Origin: an uncultured Acidobacteriota bacterium
Lineage (GTDB): Bacteria; Acidobacteriota; Vicinamibacteria; Marinacidobacterales; SMYC01
Length of the DNA: 64,000 nt
Direction of reading: 5' to 3'
NCBI GenBank assembly: GCA_963815675.1
Contig: CAWFHP010000020.1
Location: 143,430-207,429, forward strand
Below are positions 1 through 54,458 of this stretch, piece by piece. Numbering within the stretch: position 1 is the stretch's first letter; each line of letters begins with the position of its first letter. The notes under the pieces were generated by a model. It ran no database searches. It saw only the letters and a list, made by a program, of their open reading frames with translations, and was not told where the DNA came from. Made by a program: the position numbers and the translations under genes.

Positions 1-789
1 TCGTACAGCGTCCGGCACTGGATGGGCTCGAGCCCGACGATCTTGTGCTCGGGCCAGATTTGCTTCAGGCGGTCGCCGGCGGCGATAGTGCCGCCGCTCC
101 CCATGGCGGAAACGAAGGCGGCGATGCGTCCCGCTCCTACGCCGTCTTCGGCGAGACGCTCGGCGAGAGAGGCGACGGTATTGCCGGTGACCTCGTAGTG
201 GAAGCGGTAATTCCCCATCACCTCGAACTGATTGAGGATGCGTACGTCGGGGTCCTTCCGGAGCTCCCACGTTTTGTCGTAGAATCTCCTTGACGTTGGA
301 CTCGCTCCCCGGCGTCTTGATGACATCGGCGCCGAAGCTCTCGATGAGCTCGAACCTCTCGCGGCTCATTCCCTCGGGAAGGACGACGACGCTCCGACAG
401 CCGACGCGCCCGCCGACCCAGGCCCCTCCGACGCCGTAGTTTCCCGTGCTCGGCCAGACGAGGCGATGCTTGTGGGGATCGACCTCACCTTCGCCGATGA
501 GCTCGGCGAGCACCGAATACGCGGCTCCGACCTTGTGGCTTCCCGTGGGGAAGTTGCGGCTGTAGATGACGACGATGGGTGCCTCGACGCCCGTAACCTC
601 CCTGGGCACGACGAAGTGCCGGATCTCGTCGTCGTCTCCGTACCAGGTGATGTTGTAGAGGTTCACCGGATCGAGCGGGTCTCTATCCCGGGCCGCGCTC
701 GCTTTCGCCCGCACGGTGGGATCGATCGTCCAGGGCTGACGCATTTCGGAGAGGGTAGGACCGAGATTCATCGCGAGAATATATCGCAT
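1..789 (-). pseudogene. PLP-dependent fold-type-II enzyme (cysteine synthase/TrpB-like); 3' end lies outside the window; frame broken by a 1-nt insertion near 283
   Basis: Own translation from the ATG at 789 (not in the ORF track because it runs off the window). It reads MRYILAMNLGPTLSEMRQPWTIDP...RNFPTGSHKVGAAYSVLAEL...WPSTGNYGVGGAWVGGRVGCRSVVVLPEGMSRERFELIESFGADVIKTPGSESNVKEI. The sensible reading then continues one base out of frame: YDKTWELRKDPDVRILNQFEVMGNYRFHYEVTGN...FVSAMGSGGTIAAGDRLK. The SHK lysine motif and GSGGT loop fit the family. Confidence 0.7.
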
Positions 790-846
790 CCCTTCTTGTC
801 GCCGCCGCCGATGGATCGGGCAGCGAAGCTAGGCTCCACGGGGACG

Positions 847-1962
847 CTAGCCGACGATGCGCTCGTAGCTCTCGGGGTCGGTAGCGCCTTCGGTGCAGAG
901 GAGGAGTACCGTCGAGTTCCCGTCGAGCCCCAGCTCCGCGCGGTAGGCTTCCGAAGACGCCACCGCCATCAAGCCGGCGAGCGCCGCCGCTCCCGTCTCG
1001 CCCGAAACGATGCCGTTTTGCGCGAGTACCCGCATCGCGTCCTCCGCGAAAGCATCCTCGACCGCGACGCACCAATCGAGCCCGGCGTCGAGCGTGGGGA
1101 AGGCGATCGAGGAGGGCGTTCCGCAATTGAGCCCGGCCATGATCGAATCCTGAGGGCCTGGAAGAGTCACGATCCGTCCCGCTTCGATCGAGGCGAGAAG
1201 GCAGGCGGCCCGCGCGGGCTCGACGCCGGCGACCCGCGTGCCCGGCATCCTCTTGTAGAAATCGACGGCCGCGGCGCCGAGTGCGCCGACTCCGATGGGA
1301 ACGAAGGTGAAGGTGGGACGTCCCTCCATTTGTTCCGCGACTTCCCGGAAGATCGTTCCGTAGCCCTCGATCACCCATCGGGGGATCTCTTCATACCCGG
1401 GCCAGGAGGTGTCGTCGACGACGAGGCACCGCTCGTTCATCTCTTCCGCGGAACGAGCGATGGTGTCGTCGTAGTCGCCGTCGACGACCGCGACTTCCGC
1501 CCCTTCGCCCTCAATCGCGTCGATTCGAGCGCGCGCCGTTCCTCGGGGGACGAAGATGCGGGCCTCGAAGCCGAGGAGCCTCGCCATATGGGCAACCGCA
1601 CGCCCGTGGTTCCCGTCGGTTGCGGCCGCGAGAGTGAAAGGCCTCAAGAAGGATGTCTGCCTCGCGAGCTCGTCCAGCGTCGACCAGCCATCGAAGGGCA
1701 AACCGGTGTGAGTCTGGAGCGCGCGATACGTGGCCCAGGATGCCCCGAGAAGCTTGAACGAGGGCAGCCCGAATCGGCTCGACTCGTCCTTGACGAGGAC
1801 CCGACCGACCCCCACCCGCGCCGCGATCGACGGCGCGGAGGTCAGAGGCGTCGGCCGGTATTGCGGGAGCTTGCGGTGGAAGGCGAAGGGATCGGGCGAC
1901 CTCGATTCCGACCCGGGAGCGGGTATCGTGCCCGCCCGGGGATTGCGGAGAACGACCGTCAC
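847..1962 (-). CDS. dpaL: diaminopropionate ammonia-lyase (PLP-dependent, YgeX/DpaL family)
   Basis: 371-aa ORF. FHRKLPQYRPTPL...VLVKDESSRFGLPSFKLLGASWA and AATDGNHGRAVA are hallmarks of this family. The GTG start overlaps the upstream stop (GTGA). Confidence 0.8.
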   Translation of the reverse strand: MTVVLRNPRAGTIPAPGSESRSPDPFAFHRKLPQYRPTPLTSAPSIAARVGVGRVLVKDESSRFGLPSFKLLGASWATYRALQTHTGLPFDGWSTLDELARQTSFLRPFTLAAATDGNHGRAVAHMARLLGFEARIFVPRGTARARIDAIEGEGAEVAVVDGDYDDTIARSAEEMNERCLVVDDTSWPGYEEIPRWVIEGYGTIFREVAEQMEGRPTFTFVPIGVGALGAAAVDFYKRMPGTRVAGVEPARAACLLASIEAGRIVTLPGPQDSIMAGLNCGTPSSIAFPTLDAGLDWCVAVEDAFAEDAMRVLAQNGIVSGETGAAALAGLMAVASSEAYRAELGLDGNSTVLLLCTEGATDPESYERIVG

Positions 1963-3012
1963 GCGAGTCTCTCGAAGAGTCGTTTCTTCTGCTCGGCCGC
2001 GCGGGCGCGGATCTCCTCCGCGTCCACGCGAGTCGGGATGCCGTCACGAAGGACGACCTCGTTTCCGACGCGCACTTCGAGCGGTCTGACGCCGGCGGTA
2101 TACGCGAGATGCCACGGGCTCATCGGCGCGTACGACCACGTGACCCGATCTTCGCGCGCCTGGGGGAAGATCTCCCAGCCCGCTTCGAGCCAGTTCCACG
2201 CCGTTTCCGGAGACGCGGTCACATCGTTCTCGCGCTGGCGCAGGTAGGCGATGCGAAACGCCTCGATCATGTCGCCTCCGATTCCGTCCGAGCCGAGCAC
2301 GATCCGGTTGGGTCGCGTCGCGGGGGCGGCGTAGCCGACGGAGTTGTTCATATTGGAGAGGGGATTGTGAGCGATCGTCCCCGGAAGATCGCGATCGAGG
2401 TGGACCGCGTGAGCCAGGAGCCAGTTCTCTCGAGAGCGATGCTCGAGCCGCCGTCCGGCGTCGACGTCCTCCGGTGCCTCCGCGACGTGGATGTGAACGC
2501 CGGCGTCCGAGATCCTTCGCCAGAGCGCAGACGGCGTCGAGCGTATCGTCAGAGAGCGTGAACGAAGCGTGTGCCCCGACGTATCTCGGGGCGGTCGGGG
2601 CTGGTTTCGTGCGCAGGTACCGTTCGTTCTCCCGAAGGCCCGCTCTCGCGTCGTCGAGACCGTTACGATCGGTCACCTCGTAACACGTCGAGACCCTCAC
2701 TCCGACCTCGGCGCAGGCCTCGGCCACGACCGTGAGCGAGCCGTCAATGGCGTTCGGTGACGCATGGTGGTCGATGATCGCCGTCGTGCCACGCTCGAGC
2801 GCCTCGAGGGCGCCCAGCATCGCGGACCAGCGGACCATGTCCAGATCGAGCGCCTTGTCGAGTCTCCACCAGATGAGCTCGAGAATCTCGCCAAACGTCT
2901 TCGGCGTGCTCGGAGGCGCCGGCATGCCTCGGGCGAGAGAGGAATAGAGATGATGATGGCCGCAGACGAGCCCGGGTGTCGTAGCTTCCATCTCCGCGCT
3001 CGAGCCCTTCAT
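1959..3012 (-). pseudogene. ssnA: SsnA-type aminohydrolase (amidohydrolase superfamily); frameshifted near 2506 and missing the usual N-terminal ~55 residues
   Basis: ORFs 2044..3012 and 1959..2351 are two halves of one protein. First half: PGLVCGHHHLYSSLARG...WWRLDKALD...IIDHHASPNAIDGSL...GAHASFTLSDDTLDAVCALAKDLG. After the shift: AGVHIHVAEAPEDV...AHNPLSNMNNSVGYAAP...LGSDGIGGDM. It is colinear with E. coli SsnA as I recall it. The span is 3n+1 nt. Confidence 0.75.
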
Positions 3013-3295
3013 GAGGCGTCATTCTATCCGACTCTCCGTCGGCAGAAATGTCGGTGCTCTTTACAGGCCGATGGTGGACGATAACTCTTTGTCGGCGAGC
3101 ACCTTAACGGATCGGAGCTCGGGTCGTCCGTGACCTCTCTGTCGAGATTCCTGACATCTGGAAAGCGCCTCGTGACGAGGGCTGATGAGACAAAGACTTC
3201 AGTCTCAGTCGGTTAGGCACTGATGCCGTGACTGGCTCGCGTTTTGCTAAGTGACGTATGGGCTGATTCTTTCGTATTTGAGAGAGCCGGAGACA

Positions 3296-4273: not shown

Positions 4274-4278
4274 TTAAA

Positions 4279-6958: not shown

Positions 6959-7889
6959 TCAAGACTTCGGCGGCATGGCTCCACGGCGCTCGGTGATGAG
7001 CCGGTAGTGCTCGGGCATCCGGTAGCGGGCGAAGTCGAACAGGGTCTCCTTGTAGTTCTTGCAGAGATCCGAGATCGCAGCGCGCCACGGCGAGCTCGTC
7101 GCCGTTCGTCTGACATTGTGCCACGATTTGGCCCGAGGGCGCGATGATGGCACTCTGCGCGAGCGAGTCCACGCCCTCCTCGAGACCCCCTTTGGCGACT
7201 CCCACCACCCACGTCCCGTTCTGGTATGCCCCGGCCTGCATCACGAGATGATTGTGGAAACCGGCGAGCGCGTCCTGCGTCGGGTCCGGGGCGTAATGGA
7301 GAGGCGTGTTGTAACCGATGAGGATGATCTCGACTCCCTGGAGACCGAGGACGCGATAGGTCTCCGGCCACCTCCGGTCGTTGCAGATCGCCATTCCCAC
7401 GACGCCGCCGAAAGCGCGCCAGGCTCGAAACCCCTCGGGGCCCGGCTCGAAGTAACGCCGCTCGAGGTGCTGGAACCGCCTCCAGGGCTCGTGCTCCGCG
7501 TGTCCGGGAATGTGGACCTTGCGGTATTTCCCCACGATCGAGCCGTCGCGCTCGACGAGGATCTGGGTGTTGTAGTGATGCCCGTCCGGCGTGAGCTCGG
7601 CGTAGCCGAGAGAAAGGCCGATGCGCAGCCTCTTCGCCTCGTCGAAGAGAGGCCGCGTCGCGGCATTCGGCATCTCCGTCTCGAAGAAGGCGTCGACTTC
7701 GGACTGCGACTCGAGAAACCAGCGGGGGAAGAAGGTGGTGAGCGCGAGCTCGGGATAGACCACGAGCTCGGTGCCTTGCTCGGCGGCGCGATGGAGGAGG
7801 GCGAGGAGTCTTTCCACGATCTCGACCCGTGACTCGCTCCTCGCCACCGGACCGAGCTGCGCCGCGCCGACGACTCGCTCCCGGCTCAT
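6959..7889 (-). pseudogene. N-carbamoyl-D-amino-acid hydrolase (nitrilase superfamily); frameshifted near 7072
   Basis: The N-terminal 270 aa of ORF 6396..7889 are nitrilase-like (YPELALTTFFPRW, GKYRKVHIPG, MAICNDRRWPE with the catalytic Cys). After ...VARCDL the real continuation DLCKNYKETLFDFARYRMPEHYRLITERRGAMPPKS* is in the frame of ORF 6959..7153. The span is 3n+1 nt. Confidence 0.8.
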
Positions 7890-14116: not shown

Positions 14117-15842
14117 ATGACGTCTCGAAACGCGGTCTTGATCGTCGACTCGCAGCGGCAGAAGCGCCAGCGACTCGTCTTTGAGCTGCGCCGCCTGTTC
14201 GGCGAGGAGCTCGAGATCGTGGAAGTCTCGTCTCTCGACGAGGCGGACGCGAGTCTGCTCGCTTCCGCTCGTCCCGATTGCATTCTCATCGAAGACCGCG
14301 CACTCTCTTGCGACCGCGCCGTGCTGGCGAAACTGGCGAAGACCCGCGACGGGTCGTCGGTACCAGTGGTGATGGTCGCCGAGACGGACGAGGACGAAGC
14401 GGTTGCCGCGGCAATCGACACCGGCGCCTACGACGTCCTCGGTCGGGAACGGGTGGGTGGAATGGTGCCCTTCGTCACCGTTCGAAACGCGCTCGAAGCG
14501 TCCCGTATGCGGCGGACACTCCAGCGCGGGCTGGGATACGAGGAGGATCCCGTCACCTCGCTTCCCAGCCGCGGCTCGTTCTGCGAGCGTCTCGCTCATG
14601 CGCTATCCGGGGACCGGGAGCGAAGAGCGACGGGAGTGGTGCTCATCGGCATCGACGGGTTCAAAGCGATCAACAGCAGCTTCGGCTACGAAGTGGGCGA
14701 CCAGCTCCTCCGGATGATTGCCGGCCGACTGCGCCACTGCGTACGCAACGCCGACTCGGTTGCGAGATGGGGAGGCGACGAGTTCGCCGGCCTCCTCGAA
14801 TCGATGTCCCGGCCGGAGGACGCCGCGTTCGTGGCGAAGCGAATTCTCTACGCCCTCGGCCGCCCCTTCGCGTACCGCGGCCAGGACTTCTATCTGAGCG
14901 CGAGCATCGGGATCGCGCTCCATCCTGAAGACGGGGTCGACGTTGCGACGTTGACCCAGCACGCCGACGCGGCGATGTACCGGGTCAAGCGTCTGGGCGG
15001 AAACAACTACCAGGCCTACTCCGACCAGATGAATGTCAACCTCTCCGACCAGATCGCGCTCGCCAACCGCCTCCGAGGAGCGGTGAAGAAGGACGAGTTC
15101 GTTCTGCACTACCAGCCTCAGCTCGACGTCCGCGACGGCCGCGTCATCGGGCTCGAAGCGCTCATTCGGTGGAACGACTCCGTCCAGGGCTTCTGCTCTC
15201 CCGCCGACTTCATCCCCGTCCTCGAAGAGACGGGTCTCATTCTGCCCGTGGGGGAATGGGTGCTTCGCAAGGCTTGCACCCAGGCGCGGGCCTGGCAGTA
15301 CGCCGGGCTCGAGAACCTCCGTATCTCGGTGAATCTCTCGCCGAAGCAGTTCCGGCAGGAGCATCTCTCCCGTCGGGTCGAGACGATCTCTGAAAGAGAC
15401 CGGCCTCGCTCCCGACAAGCTCGTGCTCGAGCTCACGGAGAGCGTTCTCATGGACGATCAGAAACACAGCGGAAGGATCCTCGACGAGCTCAAGGATCTG
15501 GGCTCGTTCATCGCGCTCGACGATTTCGGGATGGGCTATTCATCGCTGGGGGTTTTGAAGGCATTCCCCGTCGACACGTTGAAGATCGATCGGAGCTTCA
15601 TCCGCGACATCGGTGAGGACGACGAGGACCGAGCGATCTGCTCCGCCATCGTGAGCCTCGGCCGTGCGCTGAACCTTCAGGTCATGGCCGAGGGAGTCGA
15701 GACCGAGGCGCAGGTGGGAATTCTACGGGAGCAGGGTTGCCACCTGATCCAGGGATTCCTGTTCGCACGGCCCATGCCTCCCGACGACGTGTGGAACTGG
15801 CTCACCGCGAATAACTCGGCGAGCAGCCGGGAACTGACATAA
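14117..15842 (+). pseudogene. response-regulator receiver + GGDEF + EAL protein (c-di-GMP turnover); frameshifted near 15390
   Basis: Starts MTSRNAVLIVDSQ... (receiver). GGDEF region: RWGGDEFAGLL. EAL region: HYQPQLDV...GLEALIRW. After ...RRVETI the real continuation [21 protein letters not shown]...[10 protein letters not shown]...LKIDRSF...AEGVET is in the frame of ORF 15423..15842. The span is 3n+1 nt. Confidence 0.85.
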
Positions 15843-19540: not shown

Positions 19541-19627
19541 GAAAAGATTTCCTGTCAGGGAAAGCCGTAGCCTCCTGACACAAAGACGACAGAATCTCGT
19601 AAGAAGGGTTAGCGGGGAGGGGGAATC

Positions 19628-19993
19628 TCAATCTCGCCGTATCCGTCCCAGACTCGATCGCGAGACGGCTGCAGGCGGGCCATTATTTGCAGCCCGGGAG
19701 TGACCTCGAAACGAGGGAGGGGCGCGACGATCCGGAGGGAAGAAGGGGGAGTCGCGTGGGATGAATGCGTGCCGCAGGGGACCGCCGTCGATGCGAGAGC
19801 TGGAGATCTCTCGATGACAGGAGTCCTCAGCGAGATCGCCGTGATGGCTCCGTGTCATCCGGGCGCAGAAACAGGCGCCGGGCCGGCAATGCGAATTGAG
19901 AGCGTTGAGACCCGAGGCGATGCCGGCGAGGGACTCGAGGCACAGAAGATGGCTCGCGATGAGGAGCGCCGCCAGCTTCACCCGGAGCGTCAT
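19628..19993 (-). CDS. hypothetical small secreted Cys/His-rich protein (uncertain)
   Basis: MTLRVKLAALLIASHLLCLESLAG looks like a signal peptide. It is followed by HCRPGACFCARMTRSHHGDLAEDSCH. The C-terminal half is low-complexity and not convincing. It lies just upstream of the TonB receptor, in the same orientation. Confidence 0.3.
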   Translation of the reverse strand: MTLRVKLAALLIASHLLCLESLAGIASGLNALNSHCRPGACFCARMTRSHHGDLAEDSCHREISSSRIDGGPLRHAFIPRDSPFFPPDRRAPPSFRGHSRAANNGPPAAVSRSSLGRIRRD

Positions 19994-20170: not shown

Positions 20171-20705
20171 TCAGCACCCTGCTGGCGCTACCTGTTCTTG
20201 CTCGATGGCGTCTCGCACCGCCCGTACGTTCGCGGTGACGAGCTCTTCCATCGCTTCCCGGATTACATAGTTGTTCGAGAGGGTGGCGTAGAGTCCGTCG
20301 GGGACCTCGTAGGAGAGTCGCATCACGAGCTCCGCGCCCTCTTCCCGGGGCACGAATCTCGTGCTCCAGGACCCAGCGCGGAAAGTACCCTCTCGCCTTC
20401 ACGTTGGTGAAGCGCGTGGGTGGTCGATACTCGGATACGACGACGTCCCAGCTGACGTCGACGGGCCAACGATGGAGTCGATAACGAAAGATCGTTCCCG
20501 GGCGGAGATCGGATGGATGCTGCTCCAGCCGGACCGCCAGGGAGTCCGGAAACGCGCTCTTCCAATTCGCCGGGCGGTCCATGAAGGCGAAAACCTCGGG
20601 CGCGGAGCGTCGGATGAGCTCGCGCTTCTCGATGACGGTGACGTCGTATTCGGGTTTCGGCTTCCGCCGTCTCGACGCTCGACCGCTCGACCATGACACC
20701 GTCAT
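20171..20705 (-). pseudogene. SRPBCC (START/polyketide cyclase-like) family protein; frameshifted near 20356
   Basis: The N-terminal part of ORF 19995..20705 reads ...IRRSAPEVFAFMDRPANWKSAFPD...YFPRWVLEHE. It joins ORF 20171..20353 (VPREEGAELVMRLSYEVPDGLYATLSNNYVIREAMEELV...) after removing one T from GATTC. The span is 3n+1 nt. Confidence 0.65.
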
Positions 20706-21495: not shown

Positions 21496-22063
21496 CTATT
21501 TTTTTCGAATGTCCGTGATGATGAGCGTATTCGTGCGCTCGTCAAAGACGACCGAGCCGCGCGGCGACACGAACCGGGCGAGCATCGGCGCGATATCTTG
21601 CGCGCGCGCGTAGGCGAGCTTCACGTAGGTGGTCGTGAGCGGGCCGGAGAGGGCTTTCTCGTCCTCGTACTTGCGCCGCTCCTCGTACTCCTTTCGGAGC
21701 CTTTCCGAAGTGGCCACGCGCACCAGATTCGGGCCTAGCTCGTCTTTGGCGAGACCGCAGGTGCGCAGCACGAGAATCGAGCACCTGAGTCCAGGGGAGC
21801 TGCTTGAGCTTCAAGGTCGCGTTGCAGGACACTTCGGGATCGGCCGCGAGGTTGAGGCCACCCACCTCGGCGAGGAGCCTCAGCACGTCGAGCACGTCGG
21901 CCTCTTTCACGTCGATGTCGATGAGCGCCTCCTTGTCCTCCCGAACGGGATGCGCTGGTCGGCGTCTGCGTCTGCGTCTGCGTTGTCTGCGTCTGGTTCT
22001 GAGTCTGAGTCTGGGCTGGGCCTGGGTCGAGAGCAGCATGAAGGTGAGAAGGGCGGTCATCAT
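21496..22063 (-). pseudogene. secretin N-terminal-domains-only protein (PilQ/GspD N0 + N1-like, no pore domain); frameshifted near 21776
   Basis: ORF 21542..22063 gives IDIDVKEADVLDVLRLLAEVGGLNLAADPEVSCNATLKLKQLPWTQVLD. ORF 21496..21771 continues VLRTCGLAKDELGPNLVRVAT...TTYVKLAYARAQDIAPMLARFVSPRGSVVFDERTNTLIITDIRKK*. The two join by deleting one T of GATTC. The start forms an ATGA overlap with the upstream MBL gene. Confidence 0.65.
21962..22024. repeat. hexanucleotide-periodic tract (gcgtct/gagtct units) inside the 5' end of the secretin-N gene
   Basis: gcgtct gcgtct gcgtct gcgttgtct gcgtct ggttct gagtct gagtct gggctg ggcctg on the + strand. Confidence 0.8.
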
Positions 22064-23963: not shown

Positions 23964-23964
23964 G

Positions 23965-24148
23965 TCACTGGTCTTTCCACTCGACGATCTCTTCGTCGGC
24001 GATGTCGAGCTCGATGGGAGAAACATTCACCACCTGGAGAGTCACGCCGCATTCGGGACAACCGATGCTCTGGCCGAGAATCGACGTCGAGCTCGTCGAT
24101 CTCGATCTCGCTCTCGCAGGCGGGGCAAACGGGATAGTCGGCGTTCAT
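23965..24148 (-). pseudogene. LysW-like small zinc-ribbon (amino-group carrier protein family look-alike); frameshifted near 24080
   Basis: MNADYPVCPACESEIEIDELDVD, then after deleting one T of GATTC: LGQSIGCPECGVTLQVVNVSPIELDIADEEIVEWKDQ*. It has the two CPxC knuckles and an acidic tail as in LysW/ArgW. The stop lies 1 nt before the larE ATG. The span is 3n+1 nt. Confidence 0.6.
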
Positions 24149-26804: not shown

Positions 26805-27294
26805 CTAGGTCTTGCGTACGTAATGACCGGAGCGCCCGCCTTTCTTCTCGATGAGGCGGATGTCCCCGATCACCATGGTCTTATCGGCAGATTTCACCAT
26901 GTCATAAACGGTAAGTGCGGCAATGGAGACGGCGGTCAGGGCCTCCATCTCGACGCCCGTTCTCCCGAACGACCGGACCCGGGCCTCGATCTCGAAGCCC
27001 GCGCCTCGATCCTCGAGGGTGACGTCGACGTGGTCGAGGGCCAGGGGGTGGCAGAGGGGGACGAGAATCCGCGGTGCGCTTGGCGGCGAGGATTCCGGCG
27101 AGGCGTGCCGTTTCGACGACGTTGCCTTTCTTGTTGCGCCCGCCCCGCACGAGCTCCATCGCCGGCCGGGAAATCTCGACGAACCCCCGCGCCACCGCCT
27201 CTCGGAGGGTCTCGGCCTTTCCGCCGACGTCCACCATCCGCGCCGAGCCTTTCGCCGAAACGTGGCTCAGCGTCGGTTTCACTTTCCGGGCCAT
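26805..27294 (-). pseudogene. moaC: cyclic pyranopterin monophosphate synthase MoaC; frameshifted near 27068
   Basis: ORF 26902..27294 gives [18 protein letters not shown]...[23 protein letters not shown]. After deleting one T of GATTC it continues [80 protein letters not shown]. The span is 3n+1 nt. Confidence 0.85.
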
Positions 27295-28535
27295 CGGTCC
27301 TCTTTGTTCAAGAACGAATCGAGTGGATGGACGCGAACGGTGTCGCCCGCTTCGAGCCGGTCCCGCTCCGCGGGAACGATGAGCAGCGCGTTCGATTTCG
27401 CGAACGCGACGATGTCTCCCGAGCCTCTGGAGGGAATGGGCCGCGCGACGAGCTCTCCGTCCTCGCCGGGCGCGACCCAGCCCGGAAGATACGCTCTTCG
27501 CGGACCTCGATTCGAGAGGCCATTCGAGAGCCGTGCGCGGAGAAGGGGAGGCGACGGATTGTCCGCTCCCTCGAGGCGGGCGAAGGCCGTCCTCACGAAG
27601 AGCTCGAATGTCACCATCGTCGATACCGGATTTCCCGGGAGTCCAAATACCAGCTTACCATCGCCTCTCACGCCGAATACGAGCGGTTTTCCCGGTTTGA
27701 GCGCGACGGCGTCGACGAGAATCCGAACGCCGAGCTCGGCGAGGACTTTCTCGACGAGGTCGAAGCGTCCCATCGAGACCCCGCCGGAGAGCAAGAGCAC
27801 GTCGGCTCGAAAGCCGGTCTCGACGAGTCTGCGAATCGAAGGCTCGTTGTCCTCGGCGACTCCCAGGTAGCTCGCCTCGATCCCCACTTCTCGGCACTGC
27901 GCCTGGAGAGAGAACCCGTTGCTGTTGCGAATCTGCCCCGGGCCGGGCCGGACCGACGGATGGACGAGCTCGTCGCCCGTGGCGATGATCGCTGCCCGGG
28001 GGCGGCGCCCAACCGAGAGCCGGGTCTTTCCCACGGTGGCCGCGACCGCGATCGCGGCGGCGTCGAGTCGCGTGCCCGCTCGGAGCACCACGTCCGCCGC
28101 CTTCGTCTCGCTTCCCCTCGGCGCGATGTTCTCGCCGGGCGCGACCGACTCGAGAATCGAAATCGAGACCACGTCGCTCTCGTGAGCCGGTCGGGCCTCG
28201 TGGGAATGCTCCACCATCTGGACCGCGTCGGCGCCGTCGGGAACGGGGGCACCGGTCATGATGGAAGCCGCCTCCCCAGCCTCGACGCGAAACTCGGGGT
28301 AGGAGCCCGCGGGTACGACGCCCACGACCCGGAGAGTCGAAGGAACGGCGCGGGTATCGCAAGCACGGACGGCATAGCCGTCGACGGCCGAGCGCGGAAA
28401 GGGAGGCATGTCGATGTCGGAGACGACGTCTTCTCGCAGCAGCCGTCCTTCGGCCTCGGCGAAGTCGACCTCCTCGCTCGGGAGAGGTCTCGCGTGGGAG
28501 AGGACGATTGCGACGGCCTCTTCGACCGGAATCAT
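27279..28535 (-). CDS. moeA: molybdopterin molybdenumtransferase MoeA
   Basis: This is the C-terminal 418 aa of ORF 27279..29606, starting [18 protein letters not shown]...[13 protein letters not shown]...IMTGAPVP...IATGDELV...GQIRNSNG...SGGVSMG...KPGKPLVFG. The ATG at 28535 overlaps the reconstructed lpxD stop (ATGA). Confidence 0.85.
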
Positions 28536-29606
28536 GGGTCGGGCTTCTCGGGCTTCTCGTCTCGGTCCGATGTCCCGCGCGCTCGGGACCGGAGCTCTCG
28601 CTCGAGCTCGCCGATTTGCTTCCGCAACCGGGCGAGCCCGCGAAGCTCGGCCGCGAGTCTTGAGCACTTCCCGATGCGGCCGTGCCGGATAACCCGAGAC
28701 GACGGCCTTTTCGGAAACGTTGCCGATGACTCCCGACTGCGCGATCAGAACCGCGTCGTCACCGATGGTGAGATGATCCACGAGGCCCACCTGGCCTCCC
28801 ATCAGCACCCGCTCGCCCACGATCGTGCTGCCGGAAATCCCGACCTGGGCCGCCATCGCCGAGTCCCTGCCGATCTCGACGTTGTGCGCGATATGTACCA
28901 GGTTGTCGATCTTGACACCGCTCCGGATGAGCGTGCGGCCGAGGGTCCCGCGGTCGATGGTGGCGTTGGCCCCGATCTCCACGTCGTCCTCGATGACGAC
29001 CGTCCCCACGTGCCGGATCTTGAGGAACTTTCCCTCGCGACGCGCGAAGCCGAATCCATCGGCCCCCACGACCGCTCCCGGATGGAGAATGACGCGGTTG
29101 CCGATGCGACAACTCTCCCGGATGACGACGTTGGGCCAGAGGACGCAGTCCTCGCCGATGGAGACGTCTTTCCCGAGGAAGACGCCGGGATGCACGACGC
29201 TCCGCGCTCCGAGGGTCACGCCCGCTTCGAGCGTGGCGAATGGGAGAATGGCGACGTCTTCGGCGAGACGAGCGTCGGGCGAGACCGACGCGAGAGGGTC
29301 GACGCCCTTTCGAGCGGAGGGTTTCGGGTAGAACATCTCGACGAGGTCGATGAGCGCCAGAAACGGGTCGGGGTGGACCAGCTGGGGGACGGAGATCCCG
29401 TCGAGTGGCTCGCGGGTCACGAGCGCGCCGGCGCGGGACGCGGCGAGCTCGGCGCGGTAGCGCTGGTCGGCATAGAGACTCACGTCCGAAGGCCCCGCGT
29501 CTCCCAGAGAGGCGAGTCCGGTGATGCGTGACGAGCCGTCTCCGACGAGCCTCGCGCCGAGGCGCCGGGCGAGAGTTTCGACGTCGAACGATTGACCAGA
29601 GCTCAA
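28532..29606 (-). pseudogene. lpxD: UDP-3-O-acylglucosamine N-acyltransferase LpxD; frameshift near 28658 fuses it in silico to moeA
   Basis: The N-terminal 315 aa of ORF 27279..29606 carry left-handed beta-helix hexapeptide repeats ([20 protein letters not shown]...[18 protein letters not shown]...[14 protein letters not shown]). After ...ARPHREVLK the alternative frame gives [24 protein letters not shown]...KPDP*, ending at 28532. The span is 3n+1 nt. The start is a TTG, as in the ORF track. Confidence 0.8.
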
Positions 29607-29933: not shown

Positions 29934-32292
29934 ATGTCTGAGACTCCGTTGAAAACCTTAGGCAAATATCAGATCAAGAGAGAGCTCGGCAAAGGAGCCA
30001 TGGGTGTCGTCTACCTCGGCTTCGACCCTGGACTCGAGCGTGAGGTCGCGCTGAAGGTGATGGCGAGCGCCATCGTCTCGGACAGCGAGCTCAAGGAGCG
30101 CTTCGAGCGCGAAGCGAAATCGGTGGCGAGACTCCAGCACCCGAACATCGTCACCGTCTACGACCTCGGCTACGACGAGCAGGGAGCTCCCTTCATCGCG
30201 ATGGAGTATCTGAAGGGGCAGGATCTCGAGAATCGCATTCGGCGCGATCCGTTGACCTTCCGGGAGAAGCTCGACGTCGTCGCCCAGACCTGCCGCGGGC
30301 TCGCGCACGCGCACAAGAACGGCATCGTCCATCGCGACGTCAAGCCGGCGAACGTCTTCATCAGCGACAGCGGTGAGGCGAAGATCATGGACTTCGGCGT
30401 CGCCCGCTGGAAGGACGCTTCTCACACCCAAACGGGCGCCGTCCTCGGTACCGCCGACTACATGTCGCCGGAACAGATTCGCGGCCAGAAGGATTCTCGA
30501 CGGGCGATCCGATATTTTCAGCGTCGGTGTCATCCTCTATCGGCTCTTGACCAACAAGAAGCCGTTTGCCGGAGAGAACATTCAATCGGTCTTCTTCAAA
30601 ATCCTGAACCAGGAGTCGCCGGAGCTCGTTCTCCCCGAAGGCAGCGAGATGCCCGAGCTCCAGGCGATTGTCGACAAGGCCCTTTCCAAGAGCCTCGATG
30701 AGCGCTACGCGACCGCCGAAGATTTGGCGGAAGACATCAAGGACTTGATGAGCCTCTACCGGGACACGCTCAACGAGGACACCGTCTTTGACACGCTCTT
30801 CGATCCCTCGACGGTTCCCGAGATGGACCATGGATTGGACGGAAGCGGACGGCGACGCACGACGACGACCGGTCGGGTGCTCGGCACGTCGGGCTCGAGA
30901 GCCGGGGCCGGGCTCTCTCGGACCCATCGGCCGGGGACCGCCTTTCCTTCGACCACCCCCGGTCGCACCGCGTCGGGCCGCTCCGTGGTCCAGCGCACCG
31001 TCGCCGGACGCACGGTGGCGGGGCCGACCCGGATGATGCCGAGAGCGCAGATGGGTGGCACTTCCGTCTCCGCCTCTTCGGTAGGGATCCCCATCCAGGA
31101 GGCGGGCGGCGCTCTCAAGTACGTCGTCGCGGTGGTGCTGCTTCTCGGCCTCGGCGGGGGAGTCTACTGGTTCACCCAGCTCCGGAACCGCCCCGACGTC
31201 AAAGCGGGGACGGACATCGTGCAGACCGCGGGGACGCCCGCACCCACCATCGAGGAGCGTCTGGCCAAGGTGCAAAGCGCTCTCGATCAGGGCTATCTCA
31301 CCGCGGCCTCCAATGACGTGGAGCAGATCCTGCTCGCGGATCCACAGAATGCTCAGGCGCTCGAGCTGAAAGCTCGGATCGAGCAGGCGCAACGTCAGGC
31401 TCAGACGAACAACACGCAAACGACTCACGCGCAAACGGTCCCCACGACGACCGCGCCGATTCAACCCAAGGGACCGTCGAAGAGCGAGGAGGCCTCGCAG
31501 CTCGCCGTCCAGGCTTCCGTCGCGATGGGAAACGGCAGGCTCGACGAGGCGGACAATCTCATTCGTCAGGGCCGCCAGCTCGACCCGGCCAGTGCCGTAT
31601 GGCAGCAGCTCAGCCAGCAGATGGACCGCGTGCGCAAGGACGCCGCGCAGGCGGAGGCGATGCGCCAACGACAGTCGGTCATCGACGGTTTCGTGAGTCA
31701 GGCAGCGCAGGCGGTGAAGAACCGGGACTACGAGGGTGCCATCGCCGCCTACGACAAGGCGCTCGAACAGGATCCGACCAACGTTCAACTTCTCACCGGG
31801 AAGAACAACGTCCTCGTCGCGATGGAGCAGCAGAAAGCGGCCGCCTCGGTCCGGGCGCTCCAGATTAGCGAGACCGCCACCGAGTACCTGTCGCCGGGAA
31901 GTGCCAACGAGGGACCCAAGGGATTCGACACCGGGGGAGTCGAGGTCCACCAGGCCACCAAGGCGCCCGAGAATCCCGGCGAGCTCATCGTGCAAATCCA
32001 GCCCGAAACGGTGCAGCCCGGCGACCCGTACCTGCTGCGCGTACGGGTCCACAATCAGGGAAACAAACCGATCGGGGTCAAGACCATCGAGCTGGTATCG
32101 ACCTACGGCCCGAAGACCACAGGGAAGGGCCAGCAGCTGACGCCTCTGGTGCAGCGCGTCAATCCGCGAGACACCAGCGTCATCTGGGAGACGAGAGGTA
32201 CCTGGACGGAGGCTCAGAACCAGGGGAGCATCGAGGCGATCGTGACGCTCATCGGAGACGCGAAGCTGAGGAAGACGATTCGATGGCAGTGA
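29934..32292 (+). pseudogene. membrane Ser/Thr protein kinase (Hanks type) with periplasmic helical region and C-terminal Ig-like domain; frameshifted near 30494
   Basis: ORF 29934..30701 carries GKGAMGVVY, ALKV, HRDVKPANVF, DFGVA and DYMSPEQIRGQK. After deleting one T of GATTC it continues DLDGRSDIFSVGVILYRLL... in the frame of ORF 30373..32292. A TM helix follows (YVVAVVLLLGLGGGVYWF), then a C-terminal CARDB-like segment (PGDPYLLRVRVHNQGNKPI). The span is 3n+1 nt. Confidence 0.85.
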
Positions 32293-47041: not shown

Positions 47042-48694
47042 GCGAAACGACACCCCGGTCGGCGGCTTTTCGCGACGGCGCCCGCGCCGCCGTCAGGTCC
47101 GCGCTCGAGGCGGCGTCGTCGTGGTGGCGGGAGCCCGCGCGGGTTCGAGATCGTCTCGAAGCCCTCTGGGATCACGTCCGGCGCGATCCCCGGCGGGGTA
47201 TCGTACCCGGGCTCGGTCTCGTCGCCGTCGTCCTCGTTCTAGGAAACCTCGTCTCGTCGCGCTCGAATGATCGATCGCTCGTGGGAGCAGTGCAGCAAGG
47301 ACCCTTCGAGGTCAAGATTCGTGGAATCGGGAACGCTCCAGGCGCTCCGTTCCGTCACCTACTCCTCCACCATCCCGGGAAGCCAGGCGAAGATTCTCGA
47401 GCTCGTTCCGGAAGGAACCCACGTCGAGGTCGGCGACTCGCTGGTGAAGTTCGACCGGCAACCCTTTGCCGAGGAGCTGGAGCGATCGAAAGCCCAGCTC
47501 GCCCAGGCGGAGGCGGAGCTGGTGAAGGCGGAGCAGGAAGTGAAGCTCCTCCAGATCTCGTCGAAAGAAGATCTGACCGCGTCGCAGGACAAGGTGCGTC
47601 TCGCCGAGCTCGAGGTCCAGACGGTCGCCGAAGGCAAGGGCAAGGTCGCCGAAGCGGAGTCGGCCGCTCAGCTCGCCCAGGCGAAGCGCGAACTGGAGAA
47701 GGCCGAGTCCAATTACGAGGACCTGAAGCCGCTCCTCGCGGAAGGATTCATCACCAAGCTGGAGCTCGACCGAGCGAGTCAAGCGGTTGAGAAGGCGAAG
47801 GAAGATCTCGATCTTCTCGAGATCAAGCACCATACCTACATGGACTACACGAGGCCCGCCGAGATTGAGAGCTCGCAGGCGGCTCTCGCCACCAACAAGG
47901 AAGCTCTCAGGCAGACGGAACGGGCGGGCACGTATCGGCTCTCGCAGGCGGAGGCCGCCCTGAAGCTCGCTCAGAGCAAGCACTCCGAGCTCGTCTCCCG
48001 GGTGGAGACCGAGACCCAAAACCTGGACCAGTGCGAGATCCGAGCCACGGTCTCGGGGCTCGTCATCTACAAAGAGGTGTTCTTCGGGAGCGAGAAGCGC
48101 AAAGTCCAGGTAGGCGATCAGGTCTGGCCCAACCAGCCGCTCATCATGCTGCCCGATCTCTCGAAGATGATGGTGGAGACCCAGGTGCGCGAGACCGACA
48201 TCTACAAGGTCGAGAAAAACCAGCAGGTGGTGATCTCGGTCGATGCCTATCCCGAGCTGAAGCTTCGGGGAGAGGTGGATTTCATCGGGACCCTGGCGCA
48301 GGCGGACGACGCCCGGCGGGGAGGAAAATACTTCACCGTGAGCATAATGGTGGAGCGTGCCGACCCGCGTTTGAGGCCGGGGATGTCGGCTCGCGTCGAG
48401 CTCCTCGTCGAACGTCTGGACAACGCCGTTTACGCCCCGCTCGAGGCTGTTTTCGAGCGAGGAGGCAAGCACTATTGCTACCTCGTTCGCGGGGGCTCGA
48501 CCGAGGCGAGAGAAGTCCTCGTCGGCGCGAGCAACGAGAACCACATCGTCATCGAGGCCGGGCTCGAGCCGGGCGATCGCGTTCTGCTCGCCGATCCCAA
48601 GGACGAAGGCCGTCCTCTCGGAGGTGAGAGCGTTCCCGGGTTTCTCGATGTCGTCGCGCCCGGCAACGTGTCTCCGTCCCACGAGGAGCCTTGA
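47038..48694 (+). pseudogene. HlyD/MacA-type periplasmic adaptor (membrane fusion protein); frameshifted near 47318
   Basis: ORF 47038..47790 is sensible up to ...VQQGPFEVKI. After deleting one T of GATTC it continues VESGTLQALRSVTYSSTIPG...ILELVPEGTHVEVGDSLVKFD...coiled coil...beta-barrel, in the frame of ORF 47267..48694. The span is 3n+1 nt. Confidence 0.8.
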
Positions 48695-48749: not shown

Positions 48750-49480
48750 ATGAGCGCCCACGATTCGCCAGCGTCGAAGGTCGAGCCGCGGCGTCCGCTC
48801 ATCCAGGCCGTCGACGTCCGGCGGATCTATCATCGCGCGGGCCGTGACCTGGCGGCGCTCGATGGCATCAACCTCACCATCACCCGCGGAAGCTTCGTCG
48901 CCGTCATGGGCCGCTCGGGGTCGGGAAAGTCAACGCTCCTGAACCTGATGGGCTGCCTCGATTTTCCCACTGCCGGGGCGATGCTCCTCGACGGAACCGA
49001 CACCCGCAGCCTCGACGACCAGCGCCGCAGCCGGCTTCGGAACCGGCTCGTCGGGTTCCTGTTTCAGTCCTTCAACCTCATCGGCCAGATGTCGGTCGAA
49101 GAGAACGTGGAGACCGCCCTCCTCTACGGAGACGTGCCCGAGGCGGAGTGGAAGGATCGGATTCGAGCGCCTCCTCTGCCGCCTCGGCCTCCAGGATTCG
49201 GGCCTCCCATCGACCGTCGGAGCTCTCCGGGGGCGAGGCCCAGCGAGCGGCGCTCGCCCGAGCTCTGGTCAACGAGCCCGAACTCCTTCTCGCCGACGAG
49301 CCGACGGGCAACCTCGACTCCCGCACCGGTGAAGAGGTGCTCGAGCTCCTCGAAGAGCTCGTCGCCGAGGGACGCACTCTCGTGCTCGTGACCCACGATT
49401 CGACGGTGGCGAAGCGGGCGCACCGCGTCGTTTCCATCGCCGACGGTCGGGTGGAGAGCGACCGGGAGGTCGCGCGTTGA
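48750..49480 (+). pseudogene. ABC transporter ATP-binding protein (MacB/LolD type); two frameshifts near 49162 and 49197
   Basis: Walker A is [12 protein letters not shown], with the Q-loop FQSF in ORF 48624..49391. The segment [11 protein letters not shown] is in the third frame. [20 protein letters not shown]...[12 protein letters not shown] (signature and Walker B) are in ORF 49148..49480. Deleting one T from each of the two GATTC sites gives ...[32 protein letters not shown].... The span is 3n+2 nt. Confidence 0.85.
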
Positions 49481-50691
49481 GATCCCGGCCGCTGCTGAAG
49501 CTCGCCTGGCGAGGGCTCGCCCTCCACCGGCTCCGCTCCCTCCTCTCCGCTCTCGGGATTGTCTTCGGCGTGAGCGCCGTCATCGCCATGTTGTCTGTGG
49601 GGGAGGGGGCGCGGCGGGAGATCCTCGCCGAGGTCGGGCGTCTGGGTGTCACCCGGGTCACGGTTCGGGCGGGCTCGCTCTCGCGTGAGACGGAGACCGA
49701 AGCGAAAGATCTCCAGTCCCCGGGGCTCTCGCTCGCCGATGCGAGCGCCATCTCCGAAGTTTGTCCGAAGATTGAGAGCCTCGCGCCCCTCCGGCAGAGC
49801 TCGGAGAAGATCGTCCGCGGCGAGCATCGCGTCGAGTCGACCATCGTCGCCACGACGCCCTCGTTCGCGCGAACCGAGGAGCTCACCCTGCGCGACGGGC
49901 GCTTCGTCGCCGACGCCGACGTGAACGATTGAAAGCGCATCGTCGTGCTCGGGCACGACCTCGAAGCGCAGCTGTTCCCCTACGAGAAGGCTCTCGGGGC
50001 CGAGGTCCAGATCGGAGAGGAATGGTTTACCGTGGTGGGGACGCTCCTGCCGCGAGAGCGTGCGCGGCAGGGAGGCCGGCTCTCGGGACGCAACCTGAAT
50101 CGCGTCGCCTTCGTACCCCTCTCCTCGATGTCGTCTCCGGGCGGGCGCGTCGACGAGATCACGATGCGCATCACCGCCGCCGATGCCGTCCCCGACGCCG
50201 CGCGACTCATCGAGAGCGTCGTGTCCCGAAGACATCGGGGTGCGCGCGACTTCGAGCTGGTGGTGCCGCAGGAGCTCATCGCGGGCTACGAGCGCGCCCG
50301 ATTCCAGTTCAACGTCGTCGTGGGCGCGGTCGCGGCGATCTCGCTCCTCGTCGGCGGGATTGGCATCATGAATATCATGCTGGCGAACGTGACCGAGCGC
50401 GTTCGCGAGATCGGGATCCGCCGTTCGCTCGGCGCCAGTCAAAAGGACGTCACCCAGCAGTTTCTCGCCGAGGCGCTGGTCCTGACCACGGTGGGCGGCC
50501 TCGCGGGGATCCTGCTCGGAGCGGTCGCGTCGGTGGGGATCTCCACTTACGCCGGCTGGCCCACGGCCCTCAGCTTCCGCGCTCTCGTTTACGCGCTCGC
50601 GCTCGCGGCCTTCACCGGAATCAGCTGTGGTCTCTACCCGGCGGTCTCCGCCGCCCGCCGCAGCCCGGTGGAATCGCTCCGCCACGAGTAG
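49477..50691 (+). pseudogene. ABC transporter permease (MacB_PCD + FtsX domains); in-frame TGA at 49930-49932
   Basis: ORFs 49477..49932 and 49945..50691 are in the same frame: ...RFVADADVND * KRIVVLGHDLEAQLF.... The N-terminal TM helix and periplasmic domain are in the first ORF. The FtsX 3-TM bundle (GIGIMNIMLANVTERVREIGIRRSLGA) is in the second. Confidence 0.8.
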
Positions 50692-50707
50692 CAAAGAACA
50701 AAACCTA

Positions 50708-50777
50708 ACGCAAAGGCCCGAAGGCGCGAAGGCGCAAAGAAAACCAAATCCTCTTTGCGTCTTGGCGTCTTTGCGTT
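50708..50777. repeat. inverted array of NCGCAAAG octamers (4 forward, 3 reverse) forming a long hairpin between convergent genes; probable bidirectional terminator
   Basis: Forward units at 50708-50739: acgcaaag gcccgaag gcgcgaag gcgcaaag. The loop is aaaaccaaatcc. Reverse units at 50752-50775: tctttgcg tcttggcg tctttgcg. It lies between the stop at 50691 (+) and the stop at 50786 (-). Confidence 0.7.
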
Positions 50778-50785
50778 ACGGGTCT

Positions 50786-51124
50786 TCAGGCGAAGCTTTT
50801 GACGGCGTCGTCCTCGTTGTCGAAGATCTCGAAGATGGGGAGGAGCTTGGTCATGGTGAGGGAGTTGTGGACTCGCTTGGACGGGTTCAGTAGCTTGAGC
50901 TTGCCGCCGAACCGCTCCACCGTTCGATGTCCCGAGACGAGCTCGCCCATGCCCGTCGAATCCATGAAGGTCACGTCGGAGAAGTCCACGAGAATCTGTT
51001 TGCGGTTGGAAGCGAGAAGCGTGTCGATCGCTTCCCGGAACTCCTCGTCGCCCCCTCCACCGGTAAGCTGTCCCGAGAGCACGAGGATGCTCACGCCGTC
51101 TCTCTCGCGGAGGTCGAGCTTCAT
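50786..51124 (-). CDS. STAS-domain anti-sigma-factor antagonist (SpoIIAA-like)
   Basis: 112-aa ORF. ILVLSGQLTGG...ILVDFSDVTFMDSTGMGELV...GGKLKLLNPSKRV fits the anti-anti-sigma pattern, including the phosphorylatable Ser in DST. Confidence 0.75.
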   Translation of the reverse strand: MKLDLRERDGVSILVLSGQLTGGGGDEEFREAIDTLLASNRKQILVDFSDVTFMDSTGMGELVSGHRTVERFGGKLKLLNPSKRVHNSLTMTKLLPIFEIFDNEDDAVKSFA

Positions 51125-51157
51125 ACGAAAACTCCTTGCTTATACACTCTCGCGCGC

Positions 51158-53065: not shown

Positions 53066-53191
53066 ACACCCTCAGCTCCTCGGATCTCGTCATGCTACTC
53101 GAAGCGTTTCGAGCAATCAAGCTCGCCGCCAGGAGGCATTGCAAGGGTAGGAATTTCTATGCTAAACTTTTTAAAATCAGCTGTGTAGACG

Positions 53192-54458
53192 ATGCCGAGG
53201 CACAATCCGTACCGGACAAATACCGGTATTCACATCGAATGGTTTACCGTCAAGCGGAGCACTATCTACACGCTCATCACTCTGGTTTTCCTCTTCATGG
53301 GCGCCGCGGGCTGGGGCTACTACCAGATATTCGGGCCGAGGCCCGACGATACGAGCGTGAACGCCGCCCCTCCCGAGACGGACAAGAGCGCGCGCTTTCT
53401 CGACCTCGACGGCTCGGTGAAAGTGAGAAAATCCGGCACCTACGAATGGATCAACGCTACCCGCGCGATGGCGCTCAGTCGCGACGACACCATCCGCACG
53501 GTAGGCAACTCGAAGGCGCGGGTGCGGCTCTTCGACGGTACCGAATATCTGGTGAAACCGGATTCGATTCTCGTGATCGAAGAGGCTTCGGAAGACCCCG
53601 AGACCAAAGCACAGCGGTCGAAGGTGAAACTGACCGCGGGGCAGGTGAACCTGAAAACCCCCACCGGAAACGTCGATGGGTCTCGCTCCGATTCTGGCGA
53701 CCCCGACCACCGAGGCAACCTTCGACGAGAACACCACCGCCGACGTCAGCTTCGACACTTCGACGGGGAATTCCGGGTTCACGGTTTTCAGCGGTAAGAC
53801 CGAGCTACGTTCGGGCGACAACAAGGTCACCCTGTCCTCGTCCCAGGCGGTCGACGTGCGCGCGGACAATTCCTTCACCAACATCATCGAGCTGCCGGGG
53901 ATTCCCGCAATCGTCTCTCCCGCGAACCTCTCCGTTATCCCCGTTGCGCCCACGACCGAGTTCCGATGGCGCTCGGTCTCGGGTGCGCGCCGCTACCACG
54001 TTCTGCTCGACCGTTCGCCGTACTTCCGCGATCCGATTCTCGAGAGCACGGTGCCGAACGTTTCCATTCTGCACAAAGGGCTTCCCGCGGGAACCTACTA
54101 CTGGCAGGTGACGGCGATCGACCGGGACAACCGCCAGGGCGCACCGAGCGAGTTCGCGAAGTTCACCGTTTCGTCGCGGGCGGTGGATGCGGGCGCTTCG
54201 CCGGAGCTCACCGTGTTCAAGCCCACCGTCACCCTGGATGGCCTGGTGACCGTGAGAGGCAGGACCGATGCCGGAATCGTGGTGACCGTGGACCGGGGTA
54301 TGGGAGATGACCGGGTCGAGGTCAAAGGCGACGGCACCTTTACCTACTATTTCACCGTTCGAGAGGCCGGCCGTCACGAGGTGACGGTCAAGGCTCGCAA
54401 GCGCGAGGGTGGTGGCGTGACCGAAAAGAAGGTGTACGCCGAGATAGGGACCGACTGA
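53192..54458 (+). pseudogene. membrane-anchored FecR-domain protein with C-terminal Ig/FN3-like domains; frameshifted near 53692
   Basis: ORF 53192..53797 has a TM helix (IYTLITLVFLFMGAAGWGYY) and a FecR-like region (GSVKVRKSGTYEWINATRAMALSRDDTIRTVGNSKARVRLFDGTEYLVKPDSILVI). After ...GSRSD, deleting one T of GATTC continues LATPTTEATFDENTTADVSF... in the frame of ORF 53676..54458. The span is 3n+1 nt. Confidence 0.7.

Follow-up and report, generated by a model that had tools for sequence, protein, structure and literature searches.

The 14 single-base lesions that break 13 conserved genes in the window, the whole 64,000-nt stretch of acidobacterial DNA analysed here, are almost certainly assembly artefacts rather than mutations of the bacterium, judging from comparison with related sequences. 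Every lesion is a +1 insertion, and 10 of the 14 lie in GATTC (in gene sense) where relatives read GATC. Same-species contigs cover eight insertion sites and lack the extra base at all eight, seven of them reading GATC. Taken as a whole, the data are very probably explained by consensus errors in a long-read metagenome assembly, with modification of GATC as the probable trigger. As the breaks exist only in the sequence file, the 13 genes are to be treated as intact.

Single-base insertions in the window

A first-pass annotation had listed 14 single-base insertions in 13 genes, and this count is borne out by three lines of evidence: (i) DNA alignments show a single surplus base at each of the 14 sites, (ii) a frame scan with a self-trained codon model detects the frame changes, and (iii) a Pfam search of the window ORFs finds domains interrupted at the lesion positions (Table 1). 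The scan places a +1 change within a few nt of positions 282, 2506, 7072, 15390, 20354, 21774, 24078, 27066, 30492, 47316 and 53690; at 49160/49195 it detects a net shift of +2. The window sequence contains all ten GATTC/GAATC pentamers, the one in moaC lying one base to the left of where it had first been placed. Positions at most 2 nt from such a pentamer make up 2.5% of the window, so that the coincidence of 10 out of 14 lesions with them has p = 1e-13. The G of GATTC occupies codon position 1 at six sites and position 3 at four.

At 282, the PALP domain is cut, the log-likelihood score of the scan (LLR) is 66 and the closest genome from another genus (G001) reads GAGAT-CTACG. Amidohydro_1 ends at profile position 148 of 345 at 2506, and the EAL domain is cut at 15390, with a change from frame 2 to frame 3 in tblastn at 15389. 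The Pkinase match is split, profile positions 1–174 ending at ~30495 and positions 176–253 resuming at ~30502; the 4-nt gap in G001 at 30492 corresponds to one codon plus one base. The insertion in lpxD joins LpxD to MoeA in frame (ORF 27279–29606, Pfam LpxD, Hexapep and MoeA). The four lesions outside GATTC had all been described as touching a possible GATC, which holds for 2506, 7072 and 15390 but not for 28658 in lpxD: a GATC origin is unsupported there because G001 reads GAC-CG, and this lesion is probably not GATC-derived.

The original list was incomplete. Against near-identical contigs, further +1 insertions appear at 19594 and 58563, both GATTC and both in stretches without a called gene on the JGI contigs, as well as at 17449, 19801, 20190 and 21469, and there is one 1-nt deletion at 56048. 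The proposal that the spectrum consists of insertions only applies to the genes in the window but not to the genome, where ~14% of frame breaks are deletion-type. A replication origin was considered as the reason for the switch of lesion strand at ~29.8 kb and was rejected, the GC skew being featureless.

Table 1 Insertion sites and one substitution in the window, with the corresponding reading in G001, the family genomes, the Logan contig (L140) or the JGI contigs (L139, L141, L142)
Positions	Strand	Lesion and gene	Comparison or support
282..286	-	+1 insertion, PLP-dependent enzyme gene	GAATC on + (GATTC in sense)
2499..2510	-	+1 adjoining GATCTC (GATCTCG[G]AC), amidohydrolase (SsnA-like) gene	LLR 56; 1-nt gap in G001
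7059..7075	-	+1 between two GATCTC (GATCTCG[G]ATCTC), C-terminal end of CN-hydrolase gene	Scan, alignment, Pfam
15386..15393	+	GATC[T]CTG, +1 in GGDEF-EAL gene	G001 CGATC-CTG
19590..19598		GATTC insertion, no called gene on JGI contig	L139 GAGA-TCTG
20354..20358	-	GATC to GATTC, SRPBCC (Polyketide_cyc2-like) gene	L140 and L139 GAGA-TCG
21774..21778	-	GATC to GATTC, Secretin_N gene	L139 CGA-TCTCG; GATC in G001
24078..24082	-	GATC to GATTC, LysW-type zinc-ribbon gene	L139 CGA-TCTCGG; GATC in G001
27065..27069	-	GATCTC to GATTCTC, moaC	Same lesion in G001; extra base absent in 16 family genomes
28654..28660	-	+1 insertion (GAC[T]CG), 3' end of lpxD	G001 GAC-CG
30492..30496	+	GATTC, Ser/Thr kinase gene	tblastn frame 3 to 1
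47316..47320	+	GATC to GATTC, macA/HlyD-family gene	G001 AAGAT-CGTGG
49160..49164	+	GATC to GATTC, ABC ATPase gene (first of two)	L141 GGAT-CGAG
49195..49199	+	GATTC, +1, ABC ATPase gene (second of two)	L141 GGATA-GGG, one base fewer
49927..49932	+	GATTGA, C to T in GATC giving in-frame TGA, MacB permease gene	L141 GATCGA
53690..53694	+	GATC to GATTC, FecR-like gene	L142 CGAT-CTGG; tblastn frame 2 to 3
58561..58565		GATTC insertion between gene after mreC and PBP2 gene	L142 CGGA-TCTGG

Genome-wide error spectrum

We extended the analysis to the whole genome under study (G000; 20 contigs, 7.46 Mb, 64% GC). Over 237 kb aligned to G001, its frame breaks comprise 42 insertion-type and 7 deletion-type events, and those of G001 are likewise insertion-biased (24 versus 3). 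Among the 42 insertions of G000, 16 (38%) fall within GATTC/GAATC, where the null is 1.5% (p = 2.6e-19), and 11 more (26%) have GATC at most 6 nt away (null 6.6%, p = 3e-7). About 36% have no GATC nearby, and a second, motif-independent insertion bias therefore exists. The share of lesions in GATTC/GAATC, ~70–100% in the window, is accordingly reduced to ~40% for the genome, or ~64% with the GATC-adjacent ones.

The codon-model scan, in which the upstream frame had to be open for >100 nt, counted 1,132 insertion-type and 294 deletion-type changes. Frameshifts were recognized better from how far the upstream frame ran before its next stop than from the requirement that both frames be open, which at 64% GC failed to separate gene junctions from frameshifts. 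Near the scan peaks, GATTC occurs 119 times (25 expected) and GAATC 81 times (19.5 expected), while the control pentamers GAGTC and GACTC remain at expectation; GANTC, a CcrM-like motif suggested by the GAC[T]CG context in lpxD, was rejected on the same counts. An exact-site test gives 2.05% and 1.44% of GATTC and GAATC pentamers, respectively, versus a mean of 0.53%. The first-pass proposal that frameshifts concentrate at these pentamers thus extends to the genome, where both orientations occur. We estimate a total of ~1,400 frameshift errors at a density of about 1 per 5 kb, of which roughly 450–600 would be conversions of GATC to GA(A/T)TC.

Methyltransferases and origin of the extra bases

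A search for a Dam-like or an m4C/m5C methyltransferase, proposed together with the lesion list, returned a Dam-family PF02086 gene with a DPPY motif (C6:~132,443–133,290, 182 bits); profile searches of the genome found no C5 enzyme (PF00145) and no above-threshold match to PF01555. Of 26 relatives, 25 carry the PF02086 gene, mostly as a single copy among those searched. In the G000 assembly, the gene's own reading frame is broken by a deletion-type error. A point against the preferred explanation is that several few-contig relatives that possess Dam and read GATCTC at the moaC site show no error there. In its PF02086 match and DPPY motif, the gene resembles E. coli Dam, a D12-class N6-adenine methyltransferase that recognizes GATC; unlike that of E. 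coli Dam, its specificity is predicted, and the D12 family includes enzymes with other motifs. Because a Dam-family gene is present and neither a C5 nor an N4/N6 enzyme was found, modification of GATC is probably the trigger.

We propose that GATC would be modified in the organism, most likely to N6-methyladenine by the conserved solitary Dam-family enzyme, and that the raw signal would be distorted at the modified sites. The basecaller or polisher would then double the T (the A on the other strand), yielding GATTC/GAATC, or alternatively call C as T, yielding GATT. Such an error would outlast the consensus at metagenomic coverage because the bias is systematic. The sequencing platform is rather likely to have been Oxford Nanopore; clues to single-molecule reads are the contig count of 20 for 7.46 Mb and the frameshift density of about 1 per 5 kb.

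An artefact independent of DNA modification is unlikely, yet it is the most serious competitor. It could arise (i) from a basecaller, assembler or polisher that fails at GATC-containing k-mers or (ii) from a PacBio CLR-type process, in which the polymerase pauses opposite m6A and emits extra cognate T pulses on an insertion-biased background. The insertion bias of both genomes is more typical of CLR-type than of nanopore data, the insertions without a nearby GATC fit such a background, and the enrichment near scan peaks depends on the flanks (8-fold for GATTCT, 28-fold for AGAATC). Against this stand the facts that, among the tetramer and pentamer contexts compared, GATC alone is affected, and that the Dam-type enzyme is the sole methyltransferase found in the three classes searched. 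Bases other than the cognate T/A are also inserted 1–3 nt from GATC, and the C-to-T counterpart GATCGA to GATTGA accounts for 7 of 49 internal stops genome-wide; both are more in keeping with signal distortion around a modified base than with polymerase stutter. Even a CLR-type process, moreover, still requires m6A.

In another version, which we regard as improbable, the signature of insertions and C-to-T changes would reflect a GATC modification that current basecaller models handle poorly. Since training data usually contain ample Dam-methylated E. coli DNA, the mark in this acidobacterial lineage could then differ from ordinary Dam 6mA, or be 6mA whose behaviour differs in the flanks GATCT/AGATC. 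A weaker variant would regard the moaC lesion common to two genera as a truly hypermutable methylated site.

Independent assemblies and relatives

The attribution to a consensus error rests on four same-species contigs with 95–99% identity, one from Logan and three from JGI. At 20356, the Logan contig (SRR9023183, 99.3% identity) has GAGATCG. The JGI 3300081965 contigs, 95–97% identical, read GATC at 24080, 21776, 20356, 19594, 49163, 53693 and 58563, and are one base shorter at 49199. Intact on JGI contigs are the genes for LysW (Zn_ribbon_LysW, 60 aa, L139), Secretin_N (176 aa, L139), SRPBCC and the MacB permease (404 aa, L141); the SRPBCC gene measures 175 aa on the Logan contig and 173 aa on L139, with GATCTC in G001. 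G001 reads GATC at 283, 20356, 21775, 24079 and 47319; it and the 16 family genomes back the sites that the same-species contigs do not reach. Exact look-up of several window ORFs and frameshift fragments gave no match, and 7 of 10 proteins of one set were unmatched; no mention of ERR11594398, SRR9023183 or 3300081965 was found in the literature searched by accession.

Together with the genome-wide enrichment, these comparisons support the first-pass reading of a systematic, GATC-locked consensus error and its view that real pseudogenisation is unlikely. We consider real mutations of the strain, whether by mass pseudogenisation or by hypermutation at Dam sites, very improbable. The lesions do stand in the deposited sequence and the identical moaC lesion recurs in G001, a member of a second genus, but the same-species contigs are free of every lesion that they cover. 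The reading frames downstream of the lesions retain 66–82% protein identity to G001 with no further decay, and ~1,400 frameshifts would strike roughly a fifth of the genes, lpxD, moaC and dam included. At the moaC site, 6 of the 16 family genomes without the extra base read GATCTC; for G010, a congener of G001, the reading is GATCTC. The MoaC read-through (162 aa) shares 93% full-length identity with a JGI protein, and no MoaC of at least 94% identity is on record. Recoding, in which a real extra base is bypassed by a programmed +1 frameshift or by four-base decoding at GAT-T-C, would account for a frame that is always restored by removing a single base, but it is practically negligible, given that the base is missing from near-identical genomes coding for the same proteins, that the codon phase varies, that both pentamer orientations occur and that 19594 and 58563 carry the insertion where no gene is called.

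Comparison with known sequencing errors

In nanopore assemblies of Klebsiella, consensus errors occur at the Dcm methylation motif CCWGG (Wick et al. 2019, PMC6591954). The errors described here likewise follow one short methylation motif, account for much of the consensus error as a whole, outlast the consensus through their systematic nature and would hinge on basecaller training for the modification. They differ from the Dcm 5mC case in the motif, GATC, in consisting mainly of +1 insertions, and in that platform and modification are deduced. For R10.4.1 data, ambiguous calls (T/C and A/G) next to a methylated A were reported with the minimal motif RA/TY (Lohde et al. 2024, PMC11610573), and the GATC to GATT changes seen here (49930 and the GATTGA stops) are exactly of the T-Y type. 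Substitutions predominate among published methylation errors of nanopore data and are reported there in isolate genomes (PMC11610573), whereas the frame-breaking GATTC/GAATC insertions are a class not described in that work. As a counterpoint to the preferred explanation, we did not find a motif-locked insertion class described in the literature consulted.

In soil data, frameshift errors are commoner in nanopore than in HiFi assemblies (nanoMDBG, PMC13087279), and nanopore soil MAGs polished with mmlong2/Medaka have been published (PMC12313526). The present genome resembles these MAGs in its high contiguity and many truncated proteins; motif-locking of the kind found here is unreported in both studies.

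Implications

The value of the finding is practical and concerns quality control, not biology. Probably about one fifth of the genes of this species-representative genome carry annotations that wrongly show them as split, truncated or, like the LpxD-MoeA ORF, fused. Estimates of completeness and counts of pseudogenes from the assembly are therefore unreliable, as is any "fusion protein" or "frameshift switch" that it seems to contain. The motif-lock offers a cheap rule for repair and quality control, namely to examine frame breaks for GA(A/T)TC and GATT(G). For the organism itself, the sequence data hint that GATC may be methylated in this acidobacterial family by a conserved solitary Dam-type enzyme. 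If the signature does reflect a poorly handled GATC modification, the error map would survey the methylome, or DNA modification, of uncultured soil bacteria at no extra cost.

Same-species assemblies lack the extra bases

We tested the lesions, each a single extra base that breaks a reading frame, against independent assemblies of the same species, and these near-identical contigs provide the decisive evidence. Four independent contigs were reached via exact-protein look-ups, and their readings are listed in the table together with the Pfam domains that are interrupted exactly at lesion sites. Across the ~19 kb covered by these contigs, we found 12 insertions and one deletion, and eight of the 12 insertions convert GATC to GATTC. 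Two GATTC insertions, at 19594 and 58563, were missing from the 14 lesions of the first-pass annotation and lie outside the genes called on the JGI contigs. Further +1 insertions occur at 17449, 19801, 20190 and 21469; the one at 19801 adjoins GATCTC, and one of the four sits in an A-run, as does the single-base deletion at 56048. The proposed insertion-only spectrum holds for genes in the window; genome-wide, ~14% of frame breaks are of deletion type.

Small tandem duplications are also present in the window only, relative to the near-identical contigs, at 20675–20681 (7 nt), ~50713 (8 nt) and ~58580 (24 nt, (CCGAGA)n); these could represent strain variation or assembly artefacts.

Readings of same-species contigs and Pfam domains at lesion sites (window positions)
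Source	Length	Identity to window	Reading or break
Logan contig, SRR9023183	1,524 nt	99.3%, two mismatches	GAGA-TCG at 20356; SRPBCC gene intact, 175 aa
JGI 3300081965 contig	9,792 nt	95.4%	GATC at 24080, 21776, 20356; LysW, Secretin_N, SRPBCC genes intact
JGI 3300081965 contig	1,766 nt	96.3%	GGAT-CGAG at 49163; one base fewer at 49199; C at 49930
JGI 3300081965 contig	7,707 nt	96.9%	CGAT-CTGG at 53693
Pkinase (Pfam)			profile 1–174 ends ~30495; 176–253 restarts ~30502
PALP (Pfam)			cut at 282
Amidohydro_1 (Pfam)			cut at 2506
EAL (Pfam)			cut at 15390

Lesions within the window

All ten GATTC/GAATC pentamers originally listed are present, the moaC one being GAATC at 27065–27069, one base to the left of where it had been placed. 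With 672 long ORFs of the genome as the training set for a codon log-odds model, we scored, at each position, a +1 (insertion) or −1 (deletion) frame change against no change. The insertion-type log-likelihood gain was 32–73 at 11 of the 14 sites, with a maximum mostly 0–4 nt and never >15 nt from the pentamer; the 49160/49195 pair corresponds to a net +2 change, and the lpxD site is too near the gene end to be scored. The window contains 182 GATTC/GAATC pentamers and 437 GATC; positions within 2 nt of a pentamer make up 2.5% of it and hold ten of the 14 lesions (p = 1e-13).

The closest genome, G001 (40 contigs), belongs to another genus and is syntenic with nearly all of C20, the contig holding the window. 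G001 reads GATC at the window pentamers at 283, 20356, 21775, 24079 and 47319, reads CGATC-CTG at 15389 (window, CGATCTCTG), is one base shorter at 2507, 7069, 28656 and 53693, and is shorter by one codon plus one base at 30493. For lpxD, derivation from GATC is unsupported, as G001 reads GAC-CG with a conserved Thr. The 775-aa ORF at 27279–29606, in which Pfam detects LpxD, hexapeptide repeats and MoeA, is not a natural fusion: the +1 insertion at ~28656 takes the lpxD stop out of frame and joins the two genes.

In moaC, GATTCTC and the frameshift are common to the window and G001 (G001:C6). The extra base occurs in none of 16 other family genomes, six of which, including G010 from G001's own genus, read GATCTC, and the window's MoaC, read through the shift (162 aa), aligns over its full length with a JGI metagenome protein at 93% identity. 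Its presence in two genera is best explained by one systematic error recurring at a conserved GGATCTC, and G001 itself is probably a long-read MAG affected in the same way.

Error spectrum across the genome

The window spans C20:143430–207429 of a genome (G000; 7.46 Mb, 20 contigs, 64% GC, 93.6% completeness) that protein matches assign to Acidobacteriota, close to Vicinamibacteria. G000 was compared with G001 (237 kb against 490 kb) at isolated non-triplet gaps with good flanks, each event being credited to whichever genome has the frame change. G000 carries 42 insertion-type and seven deletion-type frame breaks. Sixteen of the 42 insertions are located at GATTC/GAATC (null 1.5%, p = 2.6e-19), 11 more lie within 6 nt of GATC (null 6.6%, p = 3e-7), and one deletion-type event is also at GATC (GAT-T vs GATCT). 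G001's own errors are likewise insertion-biased (24 vs 3 deletion-type in the 237 kb; six at or near GATC).

Scanning the whole genome with the codon model gave 1,132 insertion-type and 294 deletion-type events with an upstream frame open for >100 nt. Near the insertion-type peaks, the pentamer count proposed in the first-pass annotation, with expectations set by controls from the same genes, revealed enrichment of GATTC (119 vs 25 expected) and GAATC (81 vs 19.5 expected), whereas the control pentamers GAGTC and GACTC remained at expectation. In an exact-site test, 2.05% of GATTC and 1.44% of GAATC pentamers were hit, compared with a mean of 0.53%, an excess of ~250 sites at ~55% sensitivity. 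We estimate ~1,400 frameshift errors in G000, with ~450–600 GATC to GA(A/T)TC errors striking ~1% of its 50,120 GATC sites. The link to GATC extends genome-wide, but the share of GATC-linked lesions there is below that in the window. GATCT/AGATC contexts are struck most, with T doublings about twice as frequent as A doublings when counted on the GATCT strand.

GATC-type lesions are commoner in the window than on average (six peak-linked sites vs 1.7 expected), a surplus that probably explains why the window drew attention. T is the doubled base on the sense strand of local genes in all 12 window GATTC lesions (p ~0.002, given a genome-wide T:A split of ~60:40), in part, but only in part, because sense-strand GATCT is preferred.

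A substitution class accompanies the insertions. At 49927–49932 the window reads GATTGA and the 96%-identical JGI contig GATCGA; the C to T change at 49930 introduces an in-frame TGA and so divides the MacB permease gene in two. Across the genome, GATTGA accounts for seven of the 49 in-frame stops with coding signal in the same frame on either side, and GATC to GATT for six of 18 mismatches where the close contig has GATC. A Logan contig of run ERR11594398 differs from window 56686–58508 at two positions in total, 56834 and 56996, both third codon positions of an mreB-like gene with C in the Logan contig and A or T in the window; at both, the window may carry a substitution error.

A candidate trigger

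A methyltransferase search, as the first-pass annotation had suggested, recovered a single Dam-family gene in G000 (PF02086, 182 bits, DPPY motif; C6:~132,443–133,290), which in this assembly is itself interrupted near residue 229 by a frame error of the deletion type. Dam-family genes occur in 25 of 26 relatives searched. Profile searches of G000 detected no C5 methylase (PF00145) and no N4/N6 methylase (PF01555) above threshold, so that the sole enriched error motif pairs with the sole such enzyme recovered. Judged from sequence, putative GATC methylation by this enzyme is the likely trigger of the errors.

Nanopore consensus errors are known to be dominated by methylation motifs (PMC6591954), and in R10.4.1 data T/C and A/G calls are ambiguous next to methylated A, in the motif RA/TY (PMC11610573), with which the GATC to GATT class agrees. 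For the insertion form, we found no description in this methylation-error literature (PMC6591954, PMC11610573). The overall insertion bias is also compatible with other single-molecule chemistries, so nanopore is no more than the probable platform.

Artefact rather than biology

The extra bases are not real biology of the organism: near-identical genomes lack them, frames downstream of the shifts remain 66–82% identical to G001 at the protein level, and lesions fall also where no gene is called and at different codon positions (G of GATTC at position 1 at six sites and position 3 at four). Were they real, lpxD, moaC and roughly one-fifth of all genes would be inactivated. Same-species contigs without the bases, intact genes and genome-wide motif enrichment bear out the original reading as consensus error and not pseudogenes. 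The lesion pattern is confirmed as an observation but not as a feature of the organism's biology; the value of the finding lies in quality control, and little beyond.
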